64,000 nt of DNA from a virus. Each line of letters starts with the position of its first letter. Within the stretch, counting starts at the first letter, position 1. Location of the stretch: IMG/VR virus record IMGVR_UViG_3300025015_000011, positions 32,001-96,000 of that record; one strand, written 5' to 3'. A program made the translations under genes and the position numbers. A model generated the notes under the pieces. That model was not told where the DNA came from. It worked only from the letters and a program-made list of their open reading frames with translations, and ran no database searches. Below are positions 2,896 through 35,096 of this stretch, piece after piece.

Positions 2896-3071
2896 ATGAA
2901 TAAAGATTATCTAAAAGCTAAAGAATTAGGTCCGACTAATTTGAACAGATGGGAGGAAGGAATTGAACACCATCCAATGTCTGAAAAAATTGTTGAATTT
3001 CTTTCAGACCATGACTTCAATGATTATGGTGATTATTTTTGTTGGAAATGTTAGATAAGGATAGAAAATGA
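2896..3071 (+). pseudogene. Small gene, apparently truncated or frameshifted (52-aa ORF 2896-3054)
   Basis: MNKDYLKAKELG...YFCWKC*; another frame reads EMLDKDRK-TGA (3045-3071) and overlaps the next ATG as ATGA. Confidence 0.45.
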
Positions 3072-3434
3072 AAATTGACCATGATAGATTGTATAAAGTT
3101 TTAACACATCAATTAGTTGGAAGAGGTTGTGGTAAGACCTTTGCTACTTGTTGTGAATTATTAAATATCATTGAATTGGATGGGCCCTAATTTAATAATT
3201 TGCAAAGAAAAGAATCATCATGATATATATTATATTTTTAGAATGTTAAGAGAAATAGCATATGAATTAAAATTAGATAATGTATTAAATGATATGTTCA
3301 GAAGAAAATCTGGGCAATATGATTTTCATACTAATGGTAAAAGAATTAAATTTATAACAGAAGTAGTATTCAATGAACAATATGGTTTAGCTGGATATGC
3401 TGATTATTATTTAGTAGATTTTATAGATTATTAA
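3068..3434 (+). CDS. Split gene: 40-aa ORF with GRGCGKT motif (3068-3190) plus +1-frame continuation to 3434
   Basis: CCC TAA at 3185-3190; the +1 frame CCT AAT TTA continues as the 3171-3434 ORF. Confidence 0.55.
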
Positions 3435-3508
3435 ATAAAGGAGAGTAGATTTATCTTGATATATCATTATAATTAAATTATATTAAAATAATCAAATAAA
3501 GCTTTGAG

Positions 3509-4231
3509 GTGATTATGCTTAATGACAATGAAATAGTAGAATTTAGAGAATATCATATATTTGGTGTATTTCCATATTCAATGTGGAAGGACGAAAAAAA
3601 TAAGAACTTTTTTCAATTTTTCAAAGAGAATAATTTTGAAATTAGTTTTAATTATATAATGGATTTCCCAAATCCTGAAAAGAAGCTTTATGGAGTATCA
3701 TCAACTTCAGATACTGAACAACCTATAACATCATCTGTTATGATAACAAAAGATTTTGGTAAAAATGAATTAGATACTGTCAATGCTATAATCTCAAAAA
3801 TTAGAGGCATTAATACTTCAATACCAGCTTGTTATATTGGTAAACGAACAGATTACCCAGATTGGGCAACAGAACCATGTTACAAAAATATTGCTTTAGA
3901 TGATGAATATTTTAGATATCCACAGATAGGTATAGAATTATCATGGTGTAATACACACTTTGATGGTAGAGATTTAACACAGAAAGAACTAAACAAGGTA
4001 ATAAAAGAAATGAAACGGTATTATAATAGGTGTATAAGATTCAAACATAGAGATGGAAGATATTTAACTATTAAGGATACGTTTATAAAACTTCAATCCG
4101 CAGCCAGTGACACAATTGGAGATATTGAAGATGATATAAAACAGCCCTTATCAAAAGAACAAGACAAATATTTGAACAAATCTATTGTTGAATTTTTAAT
4201 TGAAAGAAAAAATAACGGATATTGGTTATAA
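3509..4231 (+). CDS. Hypothetical protein
   Basis: 240-aa ORF, GAGG upstream of ATG 3515. Confidence 0.75.
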   Translation: MIMLNDNEIVEFREYHIFGVFPYSMWKDEKNKNFFQFFKENNFEISFNYIMDFPNPEKKLYGVSSTSDTEQPITSSVMITKDFGKNELDTVNAIISKIRGINTSIPACYIGKRTDYPDWATEPCYKNIALDDEYFRYPQIGIELSWCNTHFDGRDLTQKELNKVIKEMKRYYNRCIRFKHRDGRYLTIKDTFIKLQSAASDTIGDIEDDIKQPLSKEQDKYLNKSIVEFLIERKNNGYWL

Positions 4232-4245
4232 GGAGGAGAGAGGTC

Positions 4246-5187
4246 TTGGCTAAAGTATATCATCATGATGACCATGATGGACGAGCTGCTGGTTTTCTAG
4301 TTAAGAAATTTTATGCAGAGCAAGGTAAAGAAATTGAATGTATAGAGGTTGATTATAATTCTCAGCCTCCTATAAATACAATTCAGCCAGATGAAGATAT
4401 ATGGATAGTTGATTATTCATTTGAACCTGAGCTAATGTGGCAAGTTTTAGAAATGACTCATAACATCCATTTCATTGACCATCACCAAACCGCTATGGAG
4501 AAATATAATGATTTTCCAGAAAAGCTGGCTGGATTGAGGGTTAATGGGTTAGCAGGTTGTGAACTTACTTGGATTTATATTACCTTACTCGACGAAGGTA
4601 TAAAATGTTTTGGGGCTCTACCAACATTCTTTGAAGAGAATAAAGAGAAGTTTTTGCAGGATATGCCTCTTTTTGTCAACCTAATAGGAGATAAGGACGT
4701 TTGGAGATGGGAACATGGAGAAAAGACAGAATGTTTTGATTTAGGTCTTAGGTCATATGATACCAGTGTAAATGCAAATGTTTGGGAAAAGTTATATTAT
4801 GATTTTTTTGAATTAGATGGGGGATATCATACAATATTGATTGATGCTGGTAAAACAATAAAAAAATATAGAGACCAGTGGAGTAAAGATTACAGAGAAG
4901 CAAATGGATTTCCTGTTGAATTTGAAGGACTGAATTGTTATGCTATGAATATAGGTCGTGTTGGAAGTGAATTCTTTGGAGAAAAATCAAAAGAATATGA
5001 TATAGTAATTCCTTTTGTATTCCATAAAGATGGATCTTGGAAGATTTCTTTATATTCAGTCAACCCAAATGTGGATTGTGCTAAATTAGCTCAGAAGTAT
5101 GGTGGTGGTGGACATAAAGGTGCTTCAGGGCTTTCTTATAAAGGTGACATAAACAAGTTTTTCAAAGTCCTTGACAGTCCTGAGTAG
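4246..5187 (+). CDS. DHH/DHHA1 family phosphoesterase
   Basis: HHDDHDG, IVDYS, IDHH, GGGGHKGASG; likely TTG start at 4246 after a purine-rich RBS. Confidence 0.9.
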   Translation: MAKVYHHDDHDGRAAGFLVKKFYAEQGKEIECIEVDYNSQPPINTIQPDEDIWIVDYSFEPELMWQVLEMTHNIHFIDHHQTAMEKYNDFPEKLAGLRVNGLAGCELTWIYITLLDEGIKCFGALPTFFEENKEKFLQDMPLFVNLIGDKDVWRWEHGEKTECFDLGLRSYDTSVNANVWEKLYYDFFELDGGYHTILIDAGKTIKKYRDQWSKDYREANGFPVEFEGLNCYAMNIGRVGSEFFGEKSKEYDIVIPFVFHKDGSWKISLYSVNPNVDCAKLAQKYGGGGHKGASGLSYKGDINKFFKVLDSPE

Positions 5188-5199
5188 ATTTGTTAATAT
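5171..5199 (+). promoter_or_regulatory. Sigma70-type early promoter
   Basis: TTGACA-17nt-TAATAT with extended -10 TG. Confidence 0.7.
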
Positions 5200-5231
5200 A
5201 GATTAATCAAATTTTGATAAAGGAGAAGTAA

Positions 5232-5471
5232 ATGAATAATGAAAAGGGATTTACATTAATAGAGTTAGTTTTTGCTTTGATTCTAATACCTATAATTATT
5301 CTTGGGCTTGGAATTTGGATTTATGGTTATGTTCTTGCTTTTAGTGCAAGTATAATAATTGGTTTAGTTCTTATATTTCTTCCTCCTCTTCCATTTGTTT
5401 TTGGTATAGTTGGAATTTGTGGTTTGGATATAGCAATGGCAATTCAGAATTGGCTTCATTTACCAATATAA
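5232..5471 (+). CDS. Small membrane protein with type IV prepilin N-terminal cleavage/methylation motif
   Basis: MNNEKG|FTLIELV (G-1, F+1, E+5); the remainder is almost entirely hydrophobic; AAGGAG RBS. Confidence 0.8.
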   Translation: MNNEKGFTLIELVFALILIPIIILGLGIWIYGYVLAFSASIIIGLVLIFLPPLPFVFGIVGICGLDIAMAIQNWLHLPI

Positions 5472-5484
5472 GGGAGTGTGAATA

Positions 5485-6636
5485 ATGCCAGTAAAGAAGA
5501 TAGTAGAGGGTAAAGTTCCAGCCAAAATTTGGACAGATAATATTGAGGAAGAAGCATTAAAACAAATCTCAAATATTATTGAAAATCTTCCAGTATATTC
5601 TCATTTTGCGGCTATGCCAGATGTACATTGTGGCATGGGAATGCCAATTGGTGGGGTTCTTCCTCTTATAAATGGTATAAGTCCTAATTGTGTGGGGGTA
5701 GATATTGGATGCGGAATGCTTGCAATCAAGCTTAATATTCAAGATATTTCATTAAGTGACCTCAAAAATATATTCACAGAAATAAGAAAAGAAATACCAG
5801 TAGGATTTAATCATAGAAAAGAAAGAGTTAAATGGTATGAGAATCTTATAATTCCTCATTTACCAATAATTGAAAAAGAACTACAATCATCAGAACATCA
5901 AATTGGTACCCTAGGTGGGGGTAACCATTTCATAGAATTCCAAAAAGGTTCTGATGGTCATATTTGGTTTATGATACATTCTGGGTCAAGAAATCTTGGT
6001 AATAAGATTGCTCAGCACTATCATAAGTTAGCGGTAGAACATGGTCAAGTCCCTGGAGATAAAGTTGAATTAGCATATTTTGATAAAAACCATCAAAGTA
6101 CTATATTCAATGAATATTACAGTGCTATGTCTTTTGCTCTTGAATTTGCTTATCTAAATAGAAAAATGATGGCAGATATTGTTTTATCTATAATAGAAAG
6201 AATTCTCAATAAATTTAATTTGAAGTTTAGAGAAATTAATATTCATCATAATTATGCTGAAGAATCATATCATGGAATTTGGTTACACAGAAAAGGAGCC
6301 ACTTCAGCAAAAGAGGGAGAGTGGGGAATAATACCTGGTTCAATGGGGTCCAATTCTTATATTGTTCTTGGTAAAGGAAATAAAGAGAGTTTTGAATCTT
6401 GTGCTCATGGTGCTGGGAGAGTAATGTCTAGAACCAAAGCTAAGAAGAATATAACTTTAGAACAACACCAAGAAGATTTAAGAAGTATAGGCCTTGAGGT
6501 TTCTGAAAGGGATAATTCTTTAGACGAGAGCCCAAGAGCTTATAAAAGTATTAATGAAGTTATGATGAACCAAACAGATTTAGTAGATGTTGTCATTAAA
6601 CTAACACCATACCTATTGCCTGCAATTAAAGGATAA
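5485..6636 (+). CDS. rtcB: RNA 2',3'-cyclic phosphate/5'-OH ligase RtcB
   Basis: MPDVHCG, VGVDIGCGM, GTLGGGNHFIE, HSGSR, HHNYA, HRKGAT, PGSMG, HGAGR. Confidence 0.95.
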   Translation: MPVKKIVEGKVPAKIWTDNIEEEALKQISNIIENLPVYSHFAAMPDVHCGMGMPIGGVLPLINGISPNCVGVDIGCGMLAIKLNIQDISLSDLKNIFTEIRKEIPVGFNHRKERVKWYENLIIPHLPIIEKELQSSEHQIGTLGGGNHFIEFQKGSDGHIWFMIHSGSRNLGNKIAQHYHKLAVEHGQVPGDKVELAYFDKNHQSTIFNEYYSAMSFALEFAYLNRKMMADIVLSIIERILNKFNLKFREINIHHNYAEESYHGIWLHRKGATSAKEGEWGIIPGSMGSNSYIVLGKGNKESFESCAHGAGRVMSRTKAKKNITLEQHQEDLRSIGLEVSERDNSLDESPRAYKSINEVMMNQTDLVDVVIKLTPYLLPAIKG

Positions 6637-6640
6637 TAAA

Positions 6641-7390
6641 TTGCTTAAGAGATATAAATCAATTTTTATTTCAGATATTCATTTTGGCACTAATGACTGT
6701 AAAGCAAATTTATTATATAACTTTTTAAAACACAATACATCTGAATCTTTATATCTTATAGGGGATATAATTGATGGTTGGAAAATTAAGACTAACAGGT
6801 TTAGATGGCAACAAAAACATACTGATACTCTTAATCTTATTTTGAGATATGCTAAACATAAAGGACAAGTTATATATATTACTGGAAATCATGATGATTT
6901 TTTACACCCTTTAATTGAGTATAATATATCTCTTGGTAATGTTCAAATAGTTAATCAAGCAGAATATCAAGGTATTGATGGAAAAAGATATCTTATTATT
7001 CATGGTGATATGTTTGATGGTATAACTAAGTTACATAAATGGATATGTTTTTTAGGCGATAGAGCATATGATTTTATTCTTAATTTAAATAGTAAATATA
7101 ATTATATTAGGCATAGTTTTGGATTTGGATATTGGTCATTATCAAAATATTTAAAATATAAAGTTAAACAAGCGGTAAATTTTATATATCAATTTGAAAA
7201 TAATTTGGTTCTGCATTGTATAAAGAAAGGGTATGATGGTGTTATTTGTGGACATATACACAATGCTGAAATAAAGAGCATAAATGGAATTATTTATATG
7301 AATGATGGAGATTGGGTTGAATCTTGTACTGCCCTTGTGGAAAATTATGATGGCACTTGGAAAATAATAACCTGGGATAAGGAGATATGA
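6641..7390 (+). CDS. Calcineurin-like metallophosphoesterase (LpxH/YbbF-like)
   Basis: SDIH, GDIIDGW, GNHD, HGD, GHIH, NDGDWVES. Confidence 0.88.
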   Translation: MLKRYKSIFISDIHFGTNDCKANLLYNFLKHNTSESLYLIGDIIDGWKIKTNRFRWQQKHTDTLNLILRYAKHKGQVIYITGNHDDFLHPLIEYNISLGNVQIVNQAEYQGIDGKRYLIIHGDMFDGITKLHKWICFLGDRAYDFILNLNSKYNYIRHSFGFGYWSLSKYLKYKVKQAVNFIYQFENNLVLHCIKKGYDGVICGHIHNAEIKSINGIIYMNDGDWVESCTALVENYDGTWKIITWDKEI

Positions 7391-7849
7391 ATGAAGTATT
7401 TTGCAACAGTTAAAGAAGGTAGCAGGGTATATTCAATAATTTATGGATGGGGAACAGTTACTTATGTAACTACACTGAGGGATTTTCATGTTCTTTTCGA
7501 TAATGAAGAGTATTTATTATTGGTTCCAAAAAGAGGACCTATTAACTTTAGGTATCATTATGAGTATGATTATACTGGAGTGCGGTATAATCATTTAACA
7601 GGTCTGCATGATAAAAAACAAACTTTATTCTGGTGTGAACCTCTGATAATAGCACCAGAGAAACCACCTCTACCTATTAAGAAAAATGCTTCTGGATGGT
7701 ATAATCCAACAAATCCTCATGGGGATAATATCATGTTCTTTGGTCCTTATAAATCTGAGAATATAGCAATATCAACCAGAGATAGTATTTCAAAGTATGT
7801 AGGACCTCCAATATTTTTGAGTTATGAATATATGAAGGAAGATGAGTAA
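7391..7849 (+). CDS. Hypothetical protein
   Basis: ORF in operon with AGGAG RBS. Confidence 0.7.
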   Translation: MKYFATVKEGSRVYSIIYGWGTVTYVTTLRDFHVLFDNEEYLLLVPKRGPINFRYHYEYDYTGVRYNHLTGLHDKKQTLFWCEPLIIAPEKPPLPIKKNASGWYNPTNPHGDNIMFFGPYKSENIAISTRDSISKYVGPPIFLSYEYMKEDE

Positions 7850-7854
7850 TTTTC

Positions 7855-7883
7855 TTGAAAGGTCATTTAATTTTTGATAATAT
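7855..7883 (+). promoter_or_regulatory. Sigma70-type promoter upstream of NAD salvage genes
   Basis: TTGAAA-17nt-TAATAT with extended -10 TG. Confidence 0.55.
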
Positions 7884-7904
7884 AATTAAAGAGGAGAATG
7901 TAAA

Positions 7905-8846
7905 ATGGCAATTTCAAACAAGCAAGATATTGGTGTAATAGTAGGAAGATTCCAAGTCCCAAAACTAACATCTGCCCACAGAAGATTATTATCTGATGTT
8001 ATTAGAGACCATGATAAAGTTATAATATTCCTAGGTGTTGCTCCCACTTTAGGTACTAAACATAACCCTCTTGATTATCCCACCAGGGTTAAAATGTTAA
8101 AAGAAACAATAAATGTTACCTATCATAGGTCAACACAGGATAGTAAAACAATTTTAATTGCACCATTAATGGATAATCCATCTGATTTAGTTTGGAGCGA
8201 AAATCTTGATTCTTTTGTAAGATCTCATTTTTCAACTGGAAGTGTTTGTTTATATGGTGGTAGAGATTCTTTCATAAAATCTTATAAAACTAAAACATTC
8301 TCAACAAAGGAAATGTCTTTTCAATCTCCAGAATCAGGAACTGAATTAAGAAAAATAGCAGGGAAAGAAATTTTAAATTCAGATGACTTTAGATCTGGTA
8401 TTATTTATGCAATTCAAAATAGGTTTCCTGTAACTTATCCTACAGTTGACTTGGCTGTATTAAAAGATAATAAATATGTTTTAATGGGTAAAAAGAAAAA
8501 TGTTGATGGTTGGTGTTTCCCTGGTGGATTTGCTGACCCGCATGATGAATCTTATGAAACCGCTGCTATCAGAGAATTTCATGAAGAAATAGGTGGAGTA
8601 GAAATAGGTCTTGATTTAGAATATATTTCTAGTCATATAGTTGATGATTGGAGATACAAAGACGAAGAAAAAATCAAAACAATTCTTTTTGCTACTGATT
8701 ATATTTTTGGTGACCCAACAGTCAAAGAAGAATTGATTGATTTACAGTGGGTCAATATGACCAATACTAAGCCAGAAGATATAGCTAAAGCACACAAGCC
8801 TCTATATAAATCTTTAATTAAATATGTAAATGGGAGGATAAAGTAA
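7905..8846 (+). CDS. Bifunctional NMN adenylyltransferase / Nudix ADP-ribose hydrolase (NadM-Nudix, NatV-like)
   Basis: VGRFQ...TSAH, NPL, SGTELR; Nudix box PGGFAD...AAIREFHEEIG. Confidence 0.9.
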   Translation: MAISNKQDIGVIVGRFQVPKLTSAHRRLLSDVIRDHDKVIIFLGVAPTLGTKHNPLDYPTRVKMLKETINVTYHRSTQDSKTILIAPLMDNPSDLVWSENLDSFVRSHFSTGSVCLYGGRDSFIKSYKTKTFSTKEMSFQSPESGTELRKIAGKEILNSDDFRSGIIYAIQNRFPVTYPTVDLAVLKDNKYVLMGKKKNVDGWCFPGGFADPHDESYETAAIREFHEEIGGVEIGLDLEYISSHIVDDWRYKDEEKIKTILFATDYIFGDPTVKEELIDLQWVNMTNTKPEDIAKAHKPLYKSLIKYVNGRIK

Positions 8847-10235
8847 ATGGAAAGACCAGGAAGTAATATATGTAAAATGGGAGACAGTTATAAATTTTCT
8901 CATGCAGTCCAATATCCTCCAGGAACAGAAAAGGTCTTCTCTTACCTTGAGTCAAGAGGTGGGTTATTTGATAACACTGTTTTCTTTGGGTTACAAATCC
9001 TTCTTGAAAGGTTAGAAGGCCAAGTAGTAACTGCTGAAAAAATAGATGATGCTGAAAAGATGGTCAATGCTCACATAGGTCCTGGAATTTTTAATAGGTC
9101 TGGTTGGGAATATATACTCAATAAACACAATGGATATCTTCCAGTTATTATAAAGGCTGTTTCTGAAGGCACACAAGTCCCAGTAAGTAATGCTCTTATG
9201 ATAGTCGAGAACACAGACCCAAATTGTTTTTGGCTTACTAATTATCTTGAAACATATTTGTCTCAAGTGTGGTATCCATGTACCGTAGCAACACTTTCAA
9301 GAGAAATTAAAAAGCTGATAAATAGATTTCTTGAAACTACAGGAGACACAGCCGGTATAAATTTCAAGCTTCATGATTTCGGATATAGAGGTACAAGCTC
9401 TTTTGAAAGTGCTGGAATAGGTGGTTGTGCTCACCTTCTGAATTTTATGGGAACTGATACAGTAGCAGCAATTGAATTTACTCAGTATTATTATGAGGCA
9501 GATATGCCAGGGTTCAGTATCCCAGCAGCAGAACACTCAACCATAACATCCTGGGGCAGGGAAAATGAACTGGATGCTTTCAAGAATATGCTTGAAACAT
9601 ATCCAACAGGCCTTGTAGCTGTAGTATCTGATAGCTATGATATTTATGAAGCCTGCAAAACCCTTTGGGGTGAAGAACTAAAAGATATGGTCCTTCAAAG
9701 GGATGGGTATTTAATTATAAGACCAGATTCTGGCGAACCAACTGAAGTTATACCAAAGATTCTTAACATATTAGGTAAGGCTTTTGGGTATGAAGTGAAT
9801 TCCAAAGGTTATAAAGTCCTCAATCCTAAAGTTCGTGTTATCCAAGGGGATGGTGTTAATTATAATTCTATTGAAAATATCCTCACTCTAATGCAATATG
9901 ATGGATGGAGCACTGATAACATAGCTTTTGGTATGGGTGGTGCCCTGCTTCAAGGTATAAATAGAGATACTCAAAAGTTTGCTTTTAAATGTTCTTCTGT
10001 TACAATTAATGGCGAAGAAAGAGATGTTTATAAACAGCCAATAGATTCTCCTTGGAAGAAGTCTAAAGCTGGTAGACTTATGCTTGTTACGGATTTAGAT
10101 GGTGAATATAAAACAATTAAAGAATCTGAATATGACCCATCTTGTATGATAGATAAGATGAATGTTGTATTTTTTAATGGTAAGATAGTTAAAAAGTATA
10201 CTTTCGATGAAGTGATATGGAACGCAAAGATTTAA
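8847..10235 (+). CDS. nadV: Nicotinamide phosphoribosyltransferase (NAMPT)
   Basis: DSYKFSH, LHDFGYRG, GTDT, SIPAAEHS, VSDSYD, IRPDSG, GMGGALLQ. Confidence 0.95.
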   Translation: MERPGSNICKMGDSYKFSHAVQYPPGTEKVFSYLESRGGLFDNTVFFGLQILLERLEGQVVTAEKIDDAEKMVNAHIGPGIFNRSGWEYILNKHNGYLPVIIKAVSEGTQVPVSNALMIVENTDPNCFWLTNYLETYLSQVWYPCTVATLSREIKKLINRFLETTGDTAGINFKLHDFGYRGTSSFESAGIGGCAHLLNFMGTDTVAAIEFTQYYYEADMPGFSIPAAEHSTITSWGRENELDAFKNMLETYPTGLVAVVSDSYDIYEACKTLWGEELKDMVLQRDGYLIIRPDSGEPTEVIPKILNILGKAFGYEVNSKGYKVLNPKVRVIQGDGVNYNSIENILTLMQYDGWSTDNIAFGMGGALLQGINRDTQKFAFKCSSVTINGEERDVYKQPIDSPWKKSKAGRLMLVTDLDGEYKTIKESEYDPSCMIDKMNVVFFNGKIVKKYTFDEVIWNAKI

Positions 10236-31392: not shown

Positions 31393-33129
31393 TCATCCTT
31401 CAATTCCTGTATATCTTATCTTCCCAGTAGTATCTAAAGTGAATTCTATTATTTGTACAGCCTCAGAGTCGTCTTCATAATATGTATAAGTTTTGGTACC
31501 ATCAATATTATCTACTTGCTTTAATTTACCTTTCTCCATTTTATACATCAATTCAGTCATAAGTTTAATAGCACTTATTGTTACTTCATTTGCTGGTTGG
31601 TCTGGTAAGTTATCTGTTTTACCCTTGATAGCTAAAATGTTAGCATTATCTGGAGCTGTGTAGGACGCGGAAGCAAGGCGGGACTGCACACTCGCCTCAA
31701 GTGCTAACCCGCCTGCTAACGCTCTTGCAAGCGTCAGTCCGATATTCACAAAGTCATAAGACTCACTAGCCTCATATTCAAGGTCACTTGTGCGCCAGTA
31801 TATAATGCCACTAGTGCCTGATTCTATACCGATGACTGAAGTAGTTATATAGTATGCTGATTTAGTTGGCCCTTGGACTTCATATACTCCAACGCTTGTC
31901 CAATCTTGTATCAGCCCAAGTATCGCGTCATGGATTTTATATTCTACCGGCGCGTTTTGTGGAAATCCATCAACGCTTAGAATCGTGGCCTGGTTAGAAG
32001 CAGACTCAATCATAGCATTGTAGGCTGTGAGAGTTAGCGTAGCTGTGACCGCTGATATATTCCTGTTAAGATTCACATCAGCAGCATAGGTGGTGAGGTT
32101 AAGTTCAGCTGTTAAGGCTGGTATGTTCGTTTCTGCGTTAACCCCCGCCGCCGGTGTTGCTAGTATAAGCGCTGCTGTGGCTGTAATTATATTTCTATCA
32201 AGATTAATATCAGCATTGTAGGTTGTGAGCGACAACGCAGCTGTTGTTGCGTCTATATTGATTACTGAAACCAATGAAGCTGGGTAGGTTGTAAGTGTAA
32301 GAGGCGCAGACACTGCCTGAATATTTGTAGACGCGTTCACTACTGATTGATAGGTTGTGAGCATCAATAAAGCTGTTGTGGTGACAACATCCTTGCCTAA
32401 CGACACACCAGCTGTATTGGCTGTAAGCATCAATAAAGCTGTTGTGGTGACAACATTGACATTCAACCTTATGGCTGCTGGAAAGGTTGTTAGAGTAAGC
32501 GGAGCTGTTATCGTGTTGACATTTTGTATCAGTGTAACGGCTGCTGGAAAGGTTGTTAGAGTAAGCGGAGCCGTTGTACATGTAACATTGGTTCCAGCGG
32601 CGAGACCATAAGTGAACCCTGTAATATAGCTGTAATACACACCTGAACCTGGATTACCAGACAGCAGTATTTGACCGTATACATCGCCATCGAAAGTACC
32701 AGTCGACGTATGGCGATAAAAAGTCCACGTGGCATTAACAAGTCTATCCTTTTCAGCGCCAGCCCAGCTTGAAACGGCCTCAGTGATATAGACTATTGTA
32801 GCAGATGAAGTTTTACTGACACGACCAACAACCTTTACAGCATCTGTTGATACAAGTGATGTAGAAGGGCAAGACCATGTTGCGTTTTCGTTACCTGAAC
32901 CGGTTGCACTTCGACTGGTTTGAGCTATCGCAGAACCAATTACGTCCTCTGAACCACCCGAATGGCGGACGATTACATCAAAATTATAATTATAAGTGCC
33001 AGTAAGTTCATATATGCGAGCATAGTCGCTTCCTCCGGTATGTGTCGAAGTAAGGAGACGCTTGGCAAGAAGACCGTTGACTGTGTGCGTATCAGGCCAA
33101 TAATATCTTGTCTCAACTGTATCTGCCAT
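31393..33129 (-). CDS. Fibre/scaffold-like protein with nine 22-aa Thr/Ala repeats
   Basis: Repeats xNVxxxTAxLTLTTYxAxVxxx; beta-rich N-terminal domain; mosaic GC. Confidence 0.7.
   Translation of the reverse strand: MADTVETRYYWPDTHTVNGLLAKRLLTSTHTGGSDYARIYELTGTYNYNFDVIVRHSGGSEDVIGSAIAQTSRSATGSGNENATWSCPSTSLVSTDAVKVVGRVSKTSSATIVYITEAVSSWAGAEKDRLVNATWTFYRHTSTGTFDGDVYGQILLSGNPGSGVYYSYITGFTYGLAAGTNVTCTTAPLTLTTFPAAVTLIQNVNTITAPLTLTTFPAAIRLNVNVVTTTALLMLTANTAGVSLGKDVVTTTALLMLTTYQSVVNASTNIQAVSAPLTLTTYPASLVSVINIDATTAALSLTTYNADINLDRNIITATAALILATPAAGVNAETNIPALTAELNLTTYAADVNLNRNISAVTATLTLTAYNAMIESASNQATILSVDGFPQNAPVEYKIHDAILGLIQDWTSVGVYEVQGPTKSAYYITTSVIGIESGTSGIIYWRTSDLEYEASESYDFVNIGLTLARALAGGLALEASVQSRLASASYTAPDNANILAIKGKTDNLPDQPANEVTISAIKLMTELMYKMEKGKLKQVDNIDGTKTYTYYEDDSEAVQIIEFTLDTTGKIRYTGIEG
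31999..32592 (-). repeat. 66-bp tandem coding repeats (9 units)
   Basis: GGCTGCTGGAAAGGTTGTTAGAGTAAGCGGAGC at 32473 and 32539; GCATCAATAAAGCTGTTGTGGTGACAACAT twice, 66 bp apart. Confidence 0.85.
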
Positions 33130-33410
33130 TAGGGTTGGTCACTCCATCTGTTTTTCATTTCAGGATGAACCGAGTAAAAGACCGTCCATTGTTCCGGCGT
33201 GGTAAGCTCTTCGATGAAGTCAGCGGGATTAATAGCCAAGACCTCATCAACATCAAATCGCACAAGGGATTTATCACCAAGAAAGACCGCACCCCATTGA
33301 ACGCATGGATATTTATCTCCATAGCAAAGTTGTGGGTATCTACGACTCCCACCGCCTTCTTCGGATGGAATATCAACTGTTACGACAGGGCTTATAATCC
33401 AGCGTATCAT
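33129..33410 (-). CDS. Hypothetical protein
   Basis: 93-aa ORF coupled on both sides. Confidence 0.65.
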   Translation of the reverse strand: MIRWIISPVVTVDIPSEEGGGSRRYPQLCYGDKYPCVQWGAVFLGDKSLVRFDVDEVLAINPADFIEELTTPEQWTVFYSVHPEMKNRWSDQP

Positions 33411-35096
33411 TTAGTTTCCAAACCATACCCACGAGGGTGCAGAGCTATAGGTTAAAGTAATTGTCTCATCCGGCTCTAACATGAAAATGCCCTGTGTCAA
33501 GCCCGTAGCCGTTCCATTTATGCTCACTCCGGTAACAGTCCCGCCAGTTATATGTACCCTGCAAGTCACGGGGAAATCATTTAAAAGAGCCACTCCAGAA
33601 GCGGGTATGCTCGGCGCGGTAAGCACCCCGACGGGGTTATAATTTATGAGATTGTGTGCATGGAGCTTGGAGTTTGTCCCCGCCTGTTTTGCTATCTGCC
33701 AAGACTGCGCTTTATTTTGACCACCGCACCCGCCGTGTATTTTTACTGTTGAAATCCCTGCCACCCTTACCAGATAATAATTTGACCCAGAAGACCCGCC
33801 CGGAGGAGGAACGCCGCCTGTTCCGCCTGTATCTGCCCCTGTCCAGCCGATGTTAGAAAAAGCCCATCCGAAAGAACTGGTCCTTGTAACATCAATTCCA
33901 ACGCAGGATAAATCAAAGTGAAAGTTCGTTCCAACTCCGTAGCTCTTTTCTAATCCATTTTGACCGTAAGGACTCGCCTCGATGCGCAGGCCTGTATGTT
34001 TGCCGAGCGTGAAGAAATTATGTATGTGCTGCTGGTCAGCTCCTCGTACACGCATTCCACAAGGGCCGTTTGGTGTAAAATTAGACCATCTTGATTGGTC
34101 AGTGAACGCTTGCCAGAACCCCTCAAAAATATTATAAAAAACCCAATGATGATTATTGGTGAAGTAGCAAACATCCCTTGTGTGGTCTACATTAATGCCG
34201 ACATTGAAAGCCCCTATATGGTTATCGCTGATTCTTGAGGTATGGCCGCCATCATTAAGAACAGTCCCAACCCCCATAGCGTCATAACTGTTAATGAATG
34301 TGCACCGTGTAATAGTGCAGGCTCCTCTATACTGAATAGTCATTGGGAAAACCCACGGCTGAATAGTCTCTGCGGTATCAGTTAACCGCATCTGCGTTGG
34401 ATAGAAAAAAGCTAAGTCTTGGATTGTGCAGTTCCACCCCATTGAAATCGCAGGGGTGATCTTATTCGTTATGTAAAACAAGGGGAAGGCTGTGCTGTAA
34501 TTATACGGAGTCCACGGGCCATGAGTATCACCCCGCAAGACCACTGGTATTCTCAGCGATGTGCCGCCGAGCACAATCTGCCCAGTGATTAAGTAAGGCG
34601 TGCCTGAACGAAAGATAACCTCACCACCAAAAACAGCTTTTGCAGCATCAACGGCATTTTGAACGGGTGTTGTATTGTCCGTCCCCCATACAAATCTTTG
34701 CGCAGATACGGTAGTTGAAGCTGCAACGCTTAACTGAACTTGAGATGAACTTGTAAAAGAAGTAATTGTCCCTTGAAGTTGATCGCCTGCCGCACCCGCG
34801 CCTGGAATGACAAGTGTCTTCCCAACATCGGCGGAAGAAAATGGATTCGAGGTGTTGGCGTAAACGACATTGGAGCCAGAGTTCATGGCTCCATCATTCT
34901 TAAACTGAGCGTCTCCGACAGCCCCATAGTCCTCTACTAAAAAAACTGTCGCACTTGAACCCACCACAGATGGTGTATAAGGTTCAAGTGCTGTCTCACC
35001 TACATTAGTTCGCCACGCCTTCAAGGAAGTCCCCACCAGAGTAGAAGGGAAATCCTTAAGATGGATTAATTTGTCTATCTCCCACTTAGCAGTCAT
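33411..35096 (-). CDS. Pectate-lyase-like beta-helix tailspike/depolymerase
   Basis: VEDYGAVGDA...TDNTTPVQNAVDAA...GEVIF..G; beta-helix repeats. Confidence 0.75.
   Translation of the reverse strand: MTAKWEIDKLIHLKDFPSTLVGTSLKAWRTNVGETALEPYTPSVVGSSATVFLVEDYGAVGDAQFKNDGAMNSGSNVVYANTSNPFSSADVGKTLVIPGAGAAGDQLQGTITSFTSSSQVQLSVAASTTVSAQRFVWGTDNTTPVQNAVDAAKAVFGGEVIFRSGTPYLITGQIVLGGTSLRIPVVLRGDTHGPWTPYNYSTAFPLFYITNKITPAISMGWNCTIQDLAFFYPTQMRLTDTAETIQPWVFPMTIQYRGACTITRCTFINSYDAMGVGTVLNDGGHTSRISDNHIGAFNVGINVDHTRDVCYFTNNHHWVFYNIFEGFWQAFTDQSRWSNFTPNGPCGMRVRGADQQHIHNFFTLGKHTGLRIEASPYGQNGLEKSYGVGTNFHFDLSCVGIDVTRTSSFGWAFSNIGWTGADTGGTGGVPPPGGSSGSNYYLVRVAGISTVKIHGGCGGQNKAQSWQIAKQAGTNSKLHAHNLINYNPVGVLTAPSIPASGVALLNDFPVTCRVHITGGTVTGVSINGTATGLTQGIFMLEPDETITLTYSSAPSWVWFGN

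Follow-up and report, generated by a model that had tools for sequence, protein, structure and literature searches.

A class III prepilin-type signal joined to an unnamed membrane core in an early protein of a T4-like phage

The early locus and its phage

The stretch of DNA analysed here (the window, 64,000 nucleotides) covers positions 32001-96000 of a 166,689-bp IMG/VR record, for which CheckV gives a completeness of 72%. The phage is an uncultured T4-like myovirus from groundwater with a GC content of 32%, and its T4-like marker genes encode a gp32-type SSB, a gp46-type SbcC subunit, an ATP-dependent ligase, a gp6-type baseplate wedge and a type II topoisomerase subunit. On the plus strand of the window an early run of genes (4222-10235) encodes a DHH/DHHA1 phosphoesterase, a 79-aa membrane protein (here P0001), an RtcB RNA ligase, a calcineurin-like phosphoesterase, a 152-aa protein, a Nudix/NMNAT-like protein and NAMPT, with RNA repair and NAD salvage genes placed under one promoter region. 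The protein P0001 is identical on nine groundwater metagenome contigs, and amongst near-identical contigs its gene does not differ by a single nucleotide. The features of the P0001 gene and of the DNA in front of it are given in Table 1.

Table 1. Features of the P0001 gene and its promoter, in positions of the window
Feature	Position	Strand	Remarks
Sigma-70-like early promoter	5171..5199	+	TTGACA 5171-5176, 17-nt spacer, TG 5191-5192, TAATAT 5194-5199
Shine-Dalgarno AAGGAG	5220..5225	+	6 nt before ATG at 5232; read from sequence
CDS of the 79-aa membrane protein P0001	5232..5471	+	stop codon included
Leader MNNEKG, predicted prepilin-peptidase cut after G6	5232..5249	+	PF07963 and TIGR02532; putative cleavage
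Pilin alpha1-N-like hydrophobic helix FTLIELVFALILIPIIILGLGI, E at +5, P at +14	5250..5315	+	within model helix 9-39
Conserved hydrophobic core W29-I79	5316..5468	+	common to more than 100 small proteins

Promoter and operon

The earlier note on this DNA placed P0001 as the first gene after a TTGACA/TG-TAATAT promoter, and this is correct, with the promoter lying 32 nt from the start codon. It also regarded the promoter as an early one belonging to the gene itself, of which only the first part stands. The promoter is of the early type, but its -35 box falls within the final codons of DHH (stop 5185-5187) and RtcB starts 14 nt past the P0001 stop with no terminator between the two, thus it heads an operon and does not serve P0001 alone.

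Loose promoter-like matches are found in this AT-rich DNA at the background rate (108 against 92.8 +/- 11.3 expected). Perfect TTGACA-N16-18-TAnnnT sites number 33 in the genome, 14 of them 26-44 nt upstream of a co-oriented start where 4.7% would be expected, and nine of these start-proximal sites, the P0001 promoter and eight others of the same geometry, carry the TG extension. The enrichment of perfect sites before co-oriented starts makes the call of a promoter for P0001 a reasonable one. A subset of the early promoters takes the form TTGACAAACAATTC(C/T)T...TG(A/T)TATAAT, 29-34 nt before start codons, with the extended consensus found at genome coordinates 60284, 89490, 111492, 139880 and 141232; such sequences suggest a phage-specific class of early promoter with a conserved spacer.

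The prepilin-type signal and the predicted structure

The N-terminus of P0001 reads MNNEKG/FTLIELV (the slash marks the predicted cut), with a leader MNNEK, G6 at -1, F7 at +1, T at +2 and E11 at +5. This is the layout of a class III signal, MNNEK-G/F-T-L-I-E-LVFALILIPIIILGLG, in which a short basic leader is followed by about 20 hydrophobic residues. The motif with its E+5 had been read from the sequence in the earlier note, and an HMM search has now confirmed it, P0001 scoring 25.9 bits against the Pfam N_methyl model PF07963 (curated cut-off 21.2) and 21.3 bits against TIGR02532 (curated cut-off 16.3). By profile and by layout, the N-terminus of P0001 is a canonical class III prepilin-type signal. 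A six-frame scan of the whole 166.7-kb record returned P0001 as the one prepilin-type match, with no second N_methyl match and nothing else that is pilus-related, and a match that is unique in 166.7 kb is not the background noise of an AT-rich genome.

The remainder of the protein does not resemble a pilin. The last 48 residues (those after +25) have a GRAVY of 1.76, with D66, Q72, N73 and H76 the only polar residues, and the AlphaFold2 model, made with 74 relatives as input, consists entirely of helix (9-39, 41-48, 53-62 and 67-75) at a pLDDT of 92.6. No globular pilin head, beta-sheet or disulphide loop is present in the model, and given this and the hydrophobic tail, the description of P0001 as a headless protein with further hydrophobic helices holds. 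The beta-sheet head and the neighbouring pilus or secretion genes by which a structural subunit of a pilus or pseudopilus is recognised are both absent. A prediction of the complex of P0001 with PilD of P. aeruginosa (LEP4_PSEAE, used as a stand-in) gave a score of 0.00, which has no bearing on binding either way. P0001 may tentatively be described as a real, early-expressed inner-membrane protein built from two modules, a signal and alpha1-N-like helix in residues 1-28 and a core in residues 29-79.

One use for such a signal would be the assembly of P0001 as a mini-pilin into a host pilus or pseudopilus, where it would alter the surface of the fibre rather than block its assembly. The signal with its E+5 is canonical, and phage pilins can enter the fibre, as P-FimU shows, with a truncated P-PilA also proposed to do so (PMC12952977). 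However, a 48-residue tail of this hydrophobicity, with further helices and four polar residues, is unfit for the solvent-exposed surface of a fibre, and with neither a beta-sheet head nor a disulphide loop the protein is improbable as a fibre component.

The small size and multiple helices of P0001 also place it in the size class of holins, and a role in the timing of lysis as a holin or antiholin might be considered. This would be hard to reconcile with an early sigma-70-type promoter and co-transcription with genes for RtcB, a phosphoesterase and NAD salvage; there is also no adjacent endolysin, no charged C-terminal tail (the protein ends ...NWLHLPI) and no match to a holin in PHROGs, all of which make a lysis protein very improbable.

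A family of unnamed small membrane proteins

When 1.84 billion representatives were searched exhaustively with phmmer, P0001 had 45 matches at E<1e-3, all of them 51-111 aa in length, and a search with the family profile gave 74 clusters with E down to 1e-20 and P0001 itself at E = 8.4e-20. The family consensus is IYGxxLAFSASxxLGIxxLxxEPxPxxxG...FG..NL...I..W, in which G32 and G44 are invariant (alignments A1 and A2). The similarity of P0001 to the family is significant over its full length, and its core has both G32 and G44. No match to the core family was found in Pfam, NCBIfam, PHROGs, PADLOC or the sequences of the PDB, and a fold search for the core with Foldseek against the PDB and BFVD found no family or fold. 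The best VIA-align wide Z for the core model was 4.1, which is meaningless for a helical model. No match was obtained with tblastn of P0001 against 50,697 phage records, a word-index protein search found P0001 only, and a single-protein locus search found no relatives in viral contigs. What is new here is a prepilin signal fused to a conserved, unnamed phage membrane core, together with the definition of that family, which has more than 100 small phage membrane proteins and is covered by no current library.

The members of the family are found mostly in early or replication regions of phages: in arrays of small co-oriented genes, on a T4-like contig with rIIA and rIIB, and in phages of about 40 kb with PolA and SNF2. 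One tight cellular clade is known, from Candidatus Obscuribacterales, in which a 734-aa Band_7/SPFH gene directly precedes one member at a distance of 73 nt (L016:5723-8228, a MAG), and another cellular member, again a single case, adjoins TerD. A further member, P0011, has a weak match to the NfeD membrane domain (PF24961; E = 0.0019, 18.7 bits), under the cut-off of 26. In the genome of P0001 itself no Band_7/SPFH gene was found. The 72-aa mini-prepilin of phage 44RR2.8t, unrelated in sequence to the core family, likewise has a Band_7 gene directly upstream of it (L013:2498-3693), and small membrane proteins of these kinds may have some connection with SPFH scaffolds.

Carriers of the signal in the family

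Only 5 of the 108 family members have G at -1, F or Y at +1, T at +2 and E at +5. These carriers of the motif [KQ]-G-[FY]-T-x-[IV]-E are P0001, P0002 (GYTTIE), P0003 (GYTSVE), P0010 (GYTIIE) and P0021 (GFTLVE), and the four homologues keep all the defining positions at 38-47% identity to P0001. The refuting case named in the earlier note, of homologues lacking the motif, is thereby answered in part, as the signal is kept in these four and is absent from the other 103 of the 108 members. In these, about 95% of the family, the core is kept and an ordinary basic N-terminus and transmembrane helix take the place of the signal. Several further members have what look like decayed signals, in which the acidic residue keeps its distance of -22 to the invariant Gly (P0007 KR/FINVE, P0013 KG/DATSE, P0023 KS/TLVAE and P0030 KS/ATRIE).

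The motif is short, and P0002, P0003 and P0010, which have Y at +1, are themselves under the TIGR02532 and Pfam thresholds, so a fortuitous resemblance in a hydrophobic protein encoded by AT-rich DNA, or an open reading frame that is not expressed, has to be weighed. Against this, P0001 passes two curated thresholds with the one match in the six-frame scan of 166.7 kb, it has a strong ribosome-binding site and promoter, and it belongs to a family whose profile reaches E-values of 1e-20. As the signal also recurs in four diverged homologues it is not due to chance, and there is very little probability left for a spurious motif or gene. Judged from sequence conservation, selection acts on the signal in those members that carry it, since the four positions are kept at 38-47% identity and one of them is a Glu inside a transmembrane helix; it is unlikely that a charged residue would persist there without selection.

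In a tree of the core only (52 alignment columns) the five carriers of the motif lie scattered, and no fewer than three changes are required by the supported branches. That the motif-bearers are necessarily of independent origin was considered and softened, as the AU test of a single clade of the five gives p = 0.077 and a single origin is not formally rejected. The distribution hints at a repeated joining of the signal and core modules, and the scatter allows an argument of the Rosetta-stone type for a pathway shared by the two. No longer, fused forms of P0001 were found, which is weak evidence, and no standalone mini-prepilin was found beside the family members that do not have the motif. 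The carrier P0021 (MNNKGFTLVELV...) is from a 639-nt ENA contig and loses the core after ...LIVEPSP, where an unrelated tail rich in Pro, Arg and Gly follows; this tail is probably a frameshift or an assembly chimera on a very short contig.

That 103 of the 108 members keep the core without the signal argues that the role of the core is independent of pili, or at least of the signal. On one possible reading P0001 is an inner-membrane protein of early infection with no part in pilus biology, its job lies in the core and the signal is an interchangeable first helix. The core might then act as an Imm-like block of DNA entry, in stabilisation of the membrane or in modulation of a host membrane complex, with any cutting by PilD being inconsequential. 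The ordinary N-termini of most of the family fit with this, as does the presence of members in early and replication modules of unrelated phages, from the T4-like contig with rIIA and rIIB to the PolA phages of about 40 kb; the Obscuribacterales clade with its neighbouring Band_7/SPFH gene and TerD, and the weak NfeD match, point in the same direction. T4 Imm (Pfam Imm_superinfect), a membrane protein of about 80 aa made early by a T4-type phage, gives superinfection immunity, and it resembles P0001 in its size, early membrane character and type of phage but has no prepilin signal. No match to the Imm family was found in Pfam or PHROGs for P0001 or 42 relatives. Such a role leaves unexplained why five diverged members keep all four class III positions, including the buried Glu, when an ordinary signal anchor gives the same N-in topology and the prepilin signal would add nothing, and the genome of P0001 has no Band_7 gene. 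Even so, a core unrelated to pili is nearly as likely as the reading in which P0001 is a poison subunit, which is set out below.

Headless prepilins in other phages

Short proteins with a prepilin signal and no head are common amongst phages and have been seen before. N_methyl Pfam hits in T4-like Aeromonas phages were catalogued in 2006 (Nolan et al., PMC1524935), and two of these proteins were recovered here. ORF097c of 44RR2.8t has 72 aa, starts MKGFTLIEL, ends in a short polar tail with two Cys and adjoins a Band_7 gene, and ORF040c of Aeh1 has 28 aa and is the MKGFTLIEL start and helix only. Both resemble P0001 in being very short and in lying amongst early nucleotide-metabolism genes of a T4-like phage; unlike P0001 they have no hydrophobic core, and the sequence relation is limited to the signal. 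Conserved copies of the 72-aa form occur in 38 phage records, and every one of them is annotated as hypothetical.

The distribution of the motif across phages was followed by a degenerate-DNA scan of IMG/VR for KGFTLIEL, which gave at least 118 stretches with at least 120 motif matches (L022-L139). Among the matches listed, 105 begin a complete open reading frame with a start codon no more than 30 codons upstream, and 44 of these 105 are of 100 aa or less and 15 are of fewer than 50 aa. None of the loci among the matches listed has the motif of the core family. A number of viral contigs (e.g. L037, L086, L095, L032 and L044) have prepilin-like open reading frames of 28-45 aa which consist of the leader and alpha1-N helix alone, several of them on contigs of more than 100 kb, and these very short frames look like a recurrent, uncharacterised class of phage gene.

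The nearest published case is a truncated PilA of about 60 N-terminal residues in six virulent Pseudomonas phages, proposed either to be incorporated or to inhibit assembly of type IV pili as a form of superinfection exclusion (Sztanko et al., Cell Rep 2026, PMC12952977). As with P0001 it is a headless protein of a virulent phage with a prepilin signal and alpha1 helix, but it is a plain truncation of host PilA, whilst in P0001 the signal is joined to the core of an unrelated family. Headless phage prepilins have thus been noticed since 2006, and for a neighbouring class of proteins the idea of the earlier note is already a published speculation (PMC12952977).

P0001 as a possible poison subunit

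The reading tentatively preferred, at rather less than even probability, is that P0001 is processed by the prepilin peptidase of the host and works from within the inner membrane to poison type IV filament machines, as a subunit that cannot be extracted. P0001 would insert N-in, and a host peptidase of the PilD/GspO/ComC type, the presence of which is assumed, would remove MNNEKG and methylate F7 at +1. The mature helix with its E+5 may then be recognised as a pilin by the assembly platform of a type IV filament or by neighbouring pilins; in pilins it is established that E5 matters for assembly rather than for cleavage. With a membrane-embedded core that can neither leave the bilayer nor pack into a fibre, P0001 would become a poison subunit or competitor and the machine would be stalled. 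This could lead to an early shutdown of type IV pili, and possibly of the T2SS or competence pseudopili, if the host has such filaments, and the likely benefit to the phage would be the exclusion of pilus-dependent competitors or the loss of a receptor.

Poisoning of pilin assembly had been proposed in the earlier note from the motif, the lack of a head and the early promoter. All three of these stand, and in favour of a poison subunit are the signal that exceeds two cut-offs and is kept in four homologues, the scatter of its carriers on the core tree and the recurrence of headless prepilins in phages. Against it are the 103 of 108 members without the signal, in which the role of the core would not depend on PilD, the single origin of the motif that is not rejected, the lack of any other pilus-related match in the phage record and the host machinery that has to be assumed.

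For other phage proteins, experiments have established an interference with type IV pili (PMC8764522, PMC13436744, PMC12952977). The closest analogue for the possible mode of P0001 is PfsE (PA0721) of the filamentous phage Pf4, a small inner-membrane protein that binds PilC and suppresses type IV pili (PMC8764522), giving superinfection exclusion at the platform protein. It differs in that it is from a temperate filamentous phage, and no sequence similarity to P0001 was found. Presumably PfsE also has no prepilin signal. FimU copies of F10-like Pseudomonas prophages (P-FimU) are built into the pilus and block phages that bind its tip (Sztanko et al. 2026, PMC12952977); like P0001 they are phage-encoded with a prepilin signal, and they use the host pilus machinery, but P-FimU is a minor pilin of full length, head included, that is expressed from a prophage and incorporated without impairing the pilus. 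Tip of D3112 and Aqs1 of DMS3 are inhibitors of the PilB ATPase, with Aqs1 binding PilB (PMC13436744), and they bring about the phage-driven shutdown of type IV filaments that is proposed for P0001. They are however soluble, cytoplasmic proteins that bind PilB and have neither a membrane segment nor any mimicry of pilin. The statement that P0001 would differ from known inhibitors in not targeting PilB went too far, given that PfsE binds PilC (PMC8764522), that phage FimU enters the pilus (PMC12952977) and that a block of assembly has already been proposed for the truncated PilA of virulent Pseudomonas phages (PMC12952977).

A bolder form of the proposal is that P0001 represents a new type of poison pilin, in which the helix docks into the assembly platform and the core stalls the machine, and that the whole family of more than 100 proteins targets type IV filaments. 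The repeated joining of the signal to the same core would, if the poison pilin were true, imply a common target for the family; as it stands this extension is doubtful. If the extension were true, early phage proteins that turn off pili, secretion or the uptake of DNA would form a widespread and unrecognised class. One assembly logic is common to type IV pili, type II secretion and competence pseudopili, which are frequent phage receptors. A small phage protein that jams these machines by way of the entry signal of pilins would be a compact inhibitor working from inside the membrane, unlike the known inhibitors that bind the ATPase, and many headless prepilin genes that have been unexplained in phage genomes since at least 2006 would gain a function. 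A small share of the probability is kept for readings beyond those weighed here.

Variation in the neighbouring DNA

Variant groundwater contigs (L003, L004 and L005) are 5-6% divergent from the window at 3036-5145, across the DHH gene and the DNA upstream of it. The last difference lies at 5145, and from 5146 the promoter, P0001 and, as far as the contig extends, up to 1 kb of RtcB are identical (1,000 nt in L003, 679 nt in L004 and 49 nt in L005). The change from divergence up to 5145 to identity from 5146 marks a mosaic junction, made by recombination, a short way upstream of the promoter.

Elsewhere in the window, on the minus strand at 31393-35096, two large open reading frames of 578 and 561 aa have a GC content of 45-46%, against 30-32% for the genome. 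Neither has a Pfam match, they adjoin tail and fibre genes, and a foreign origin and a role as fibre or receptor-binding proteins are possible.
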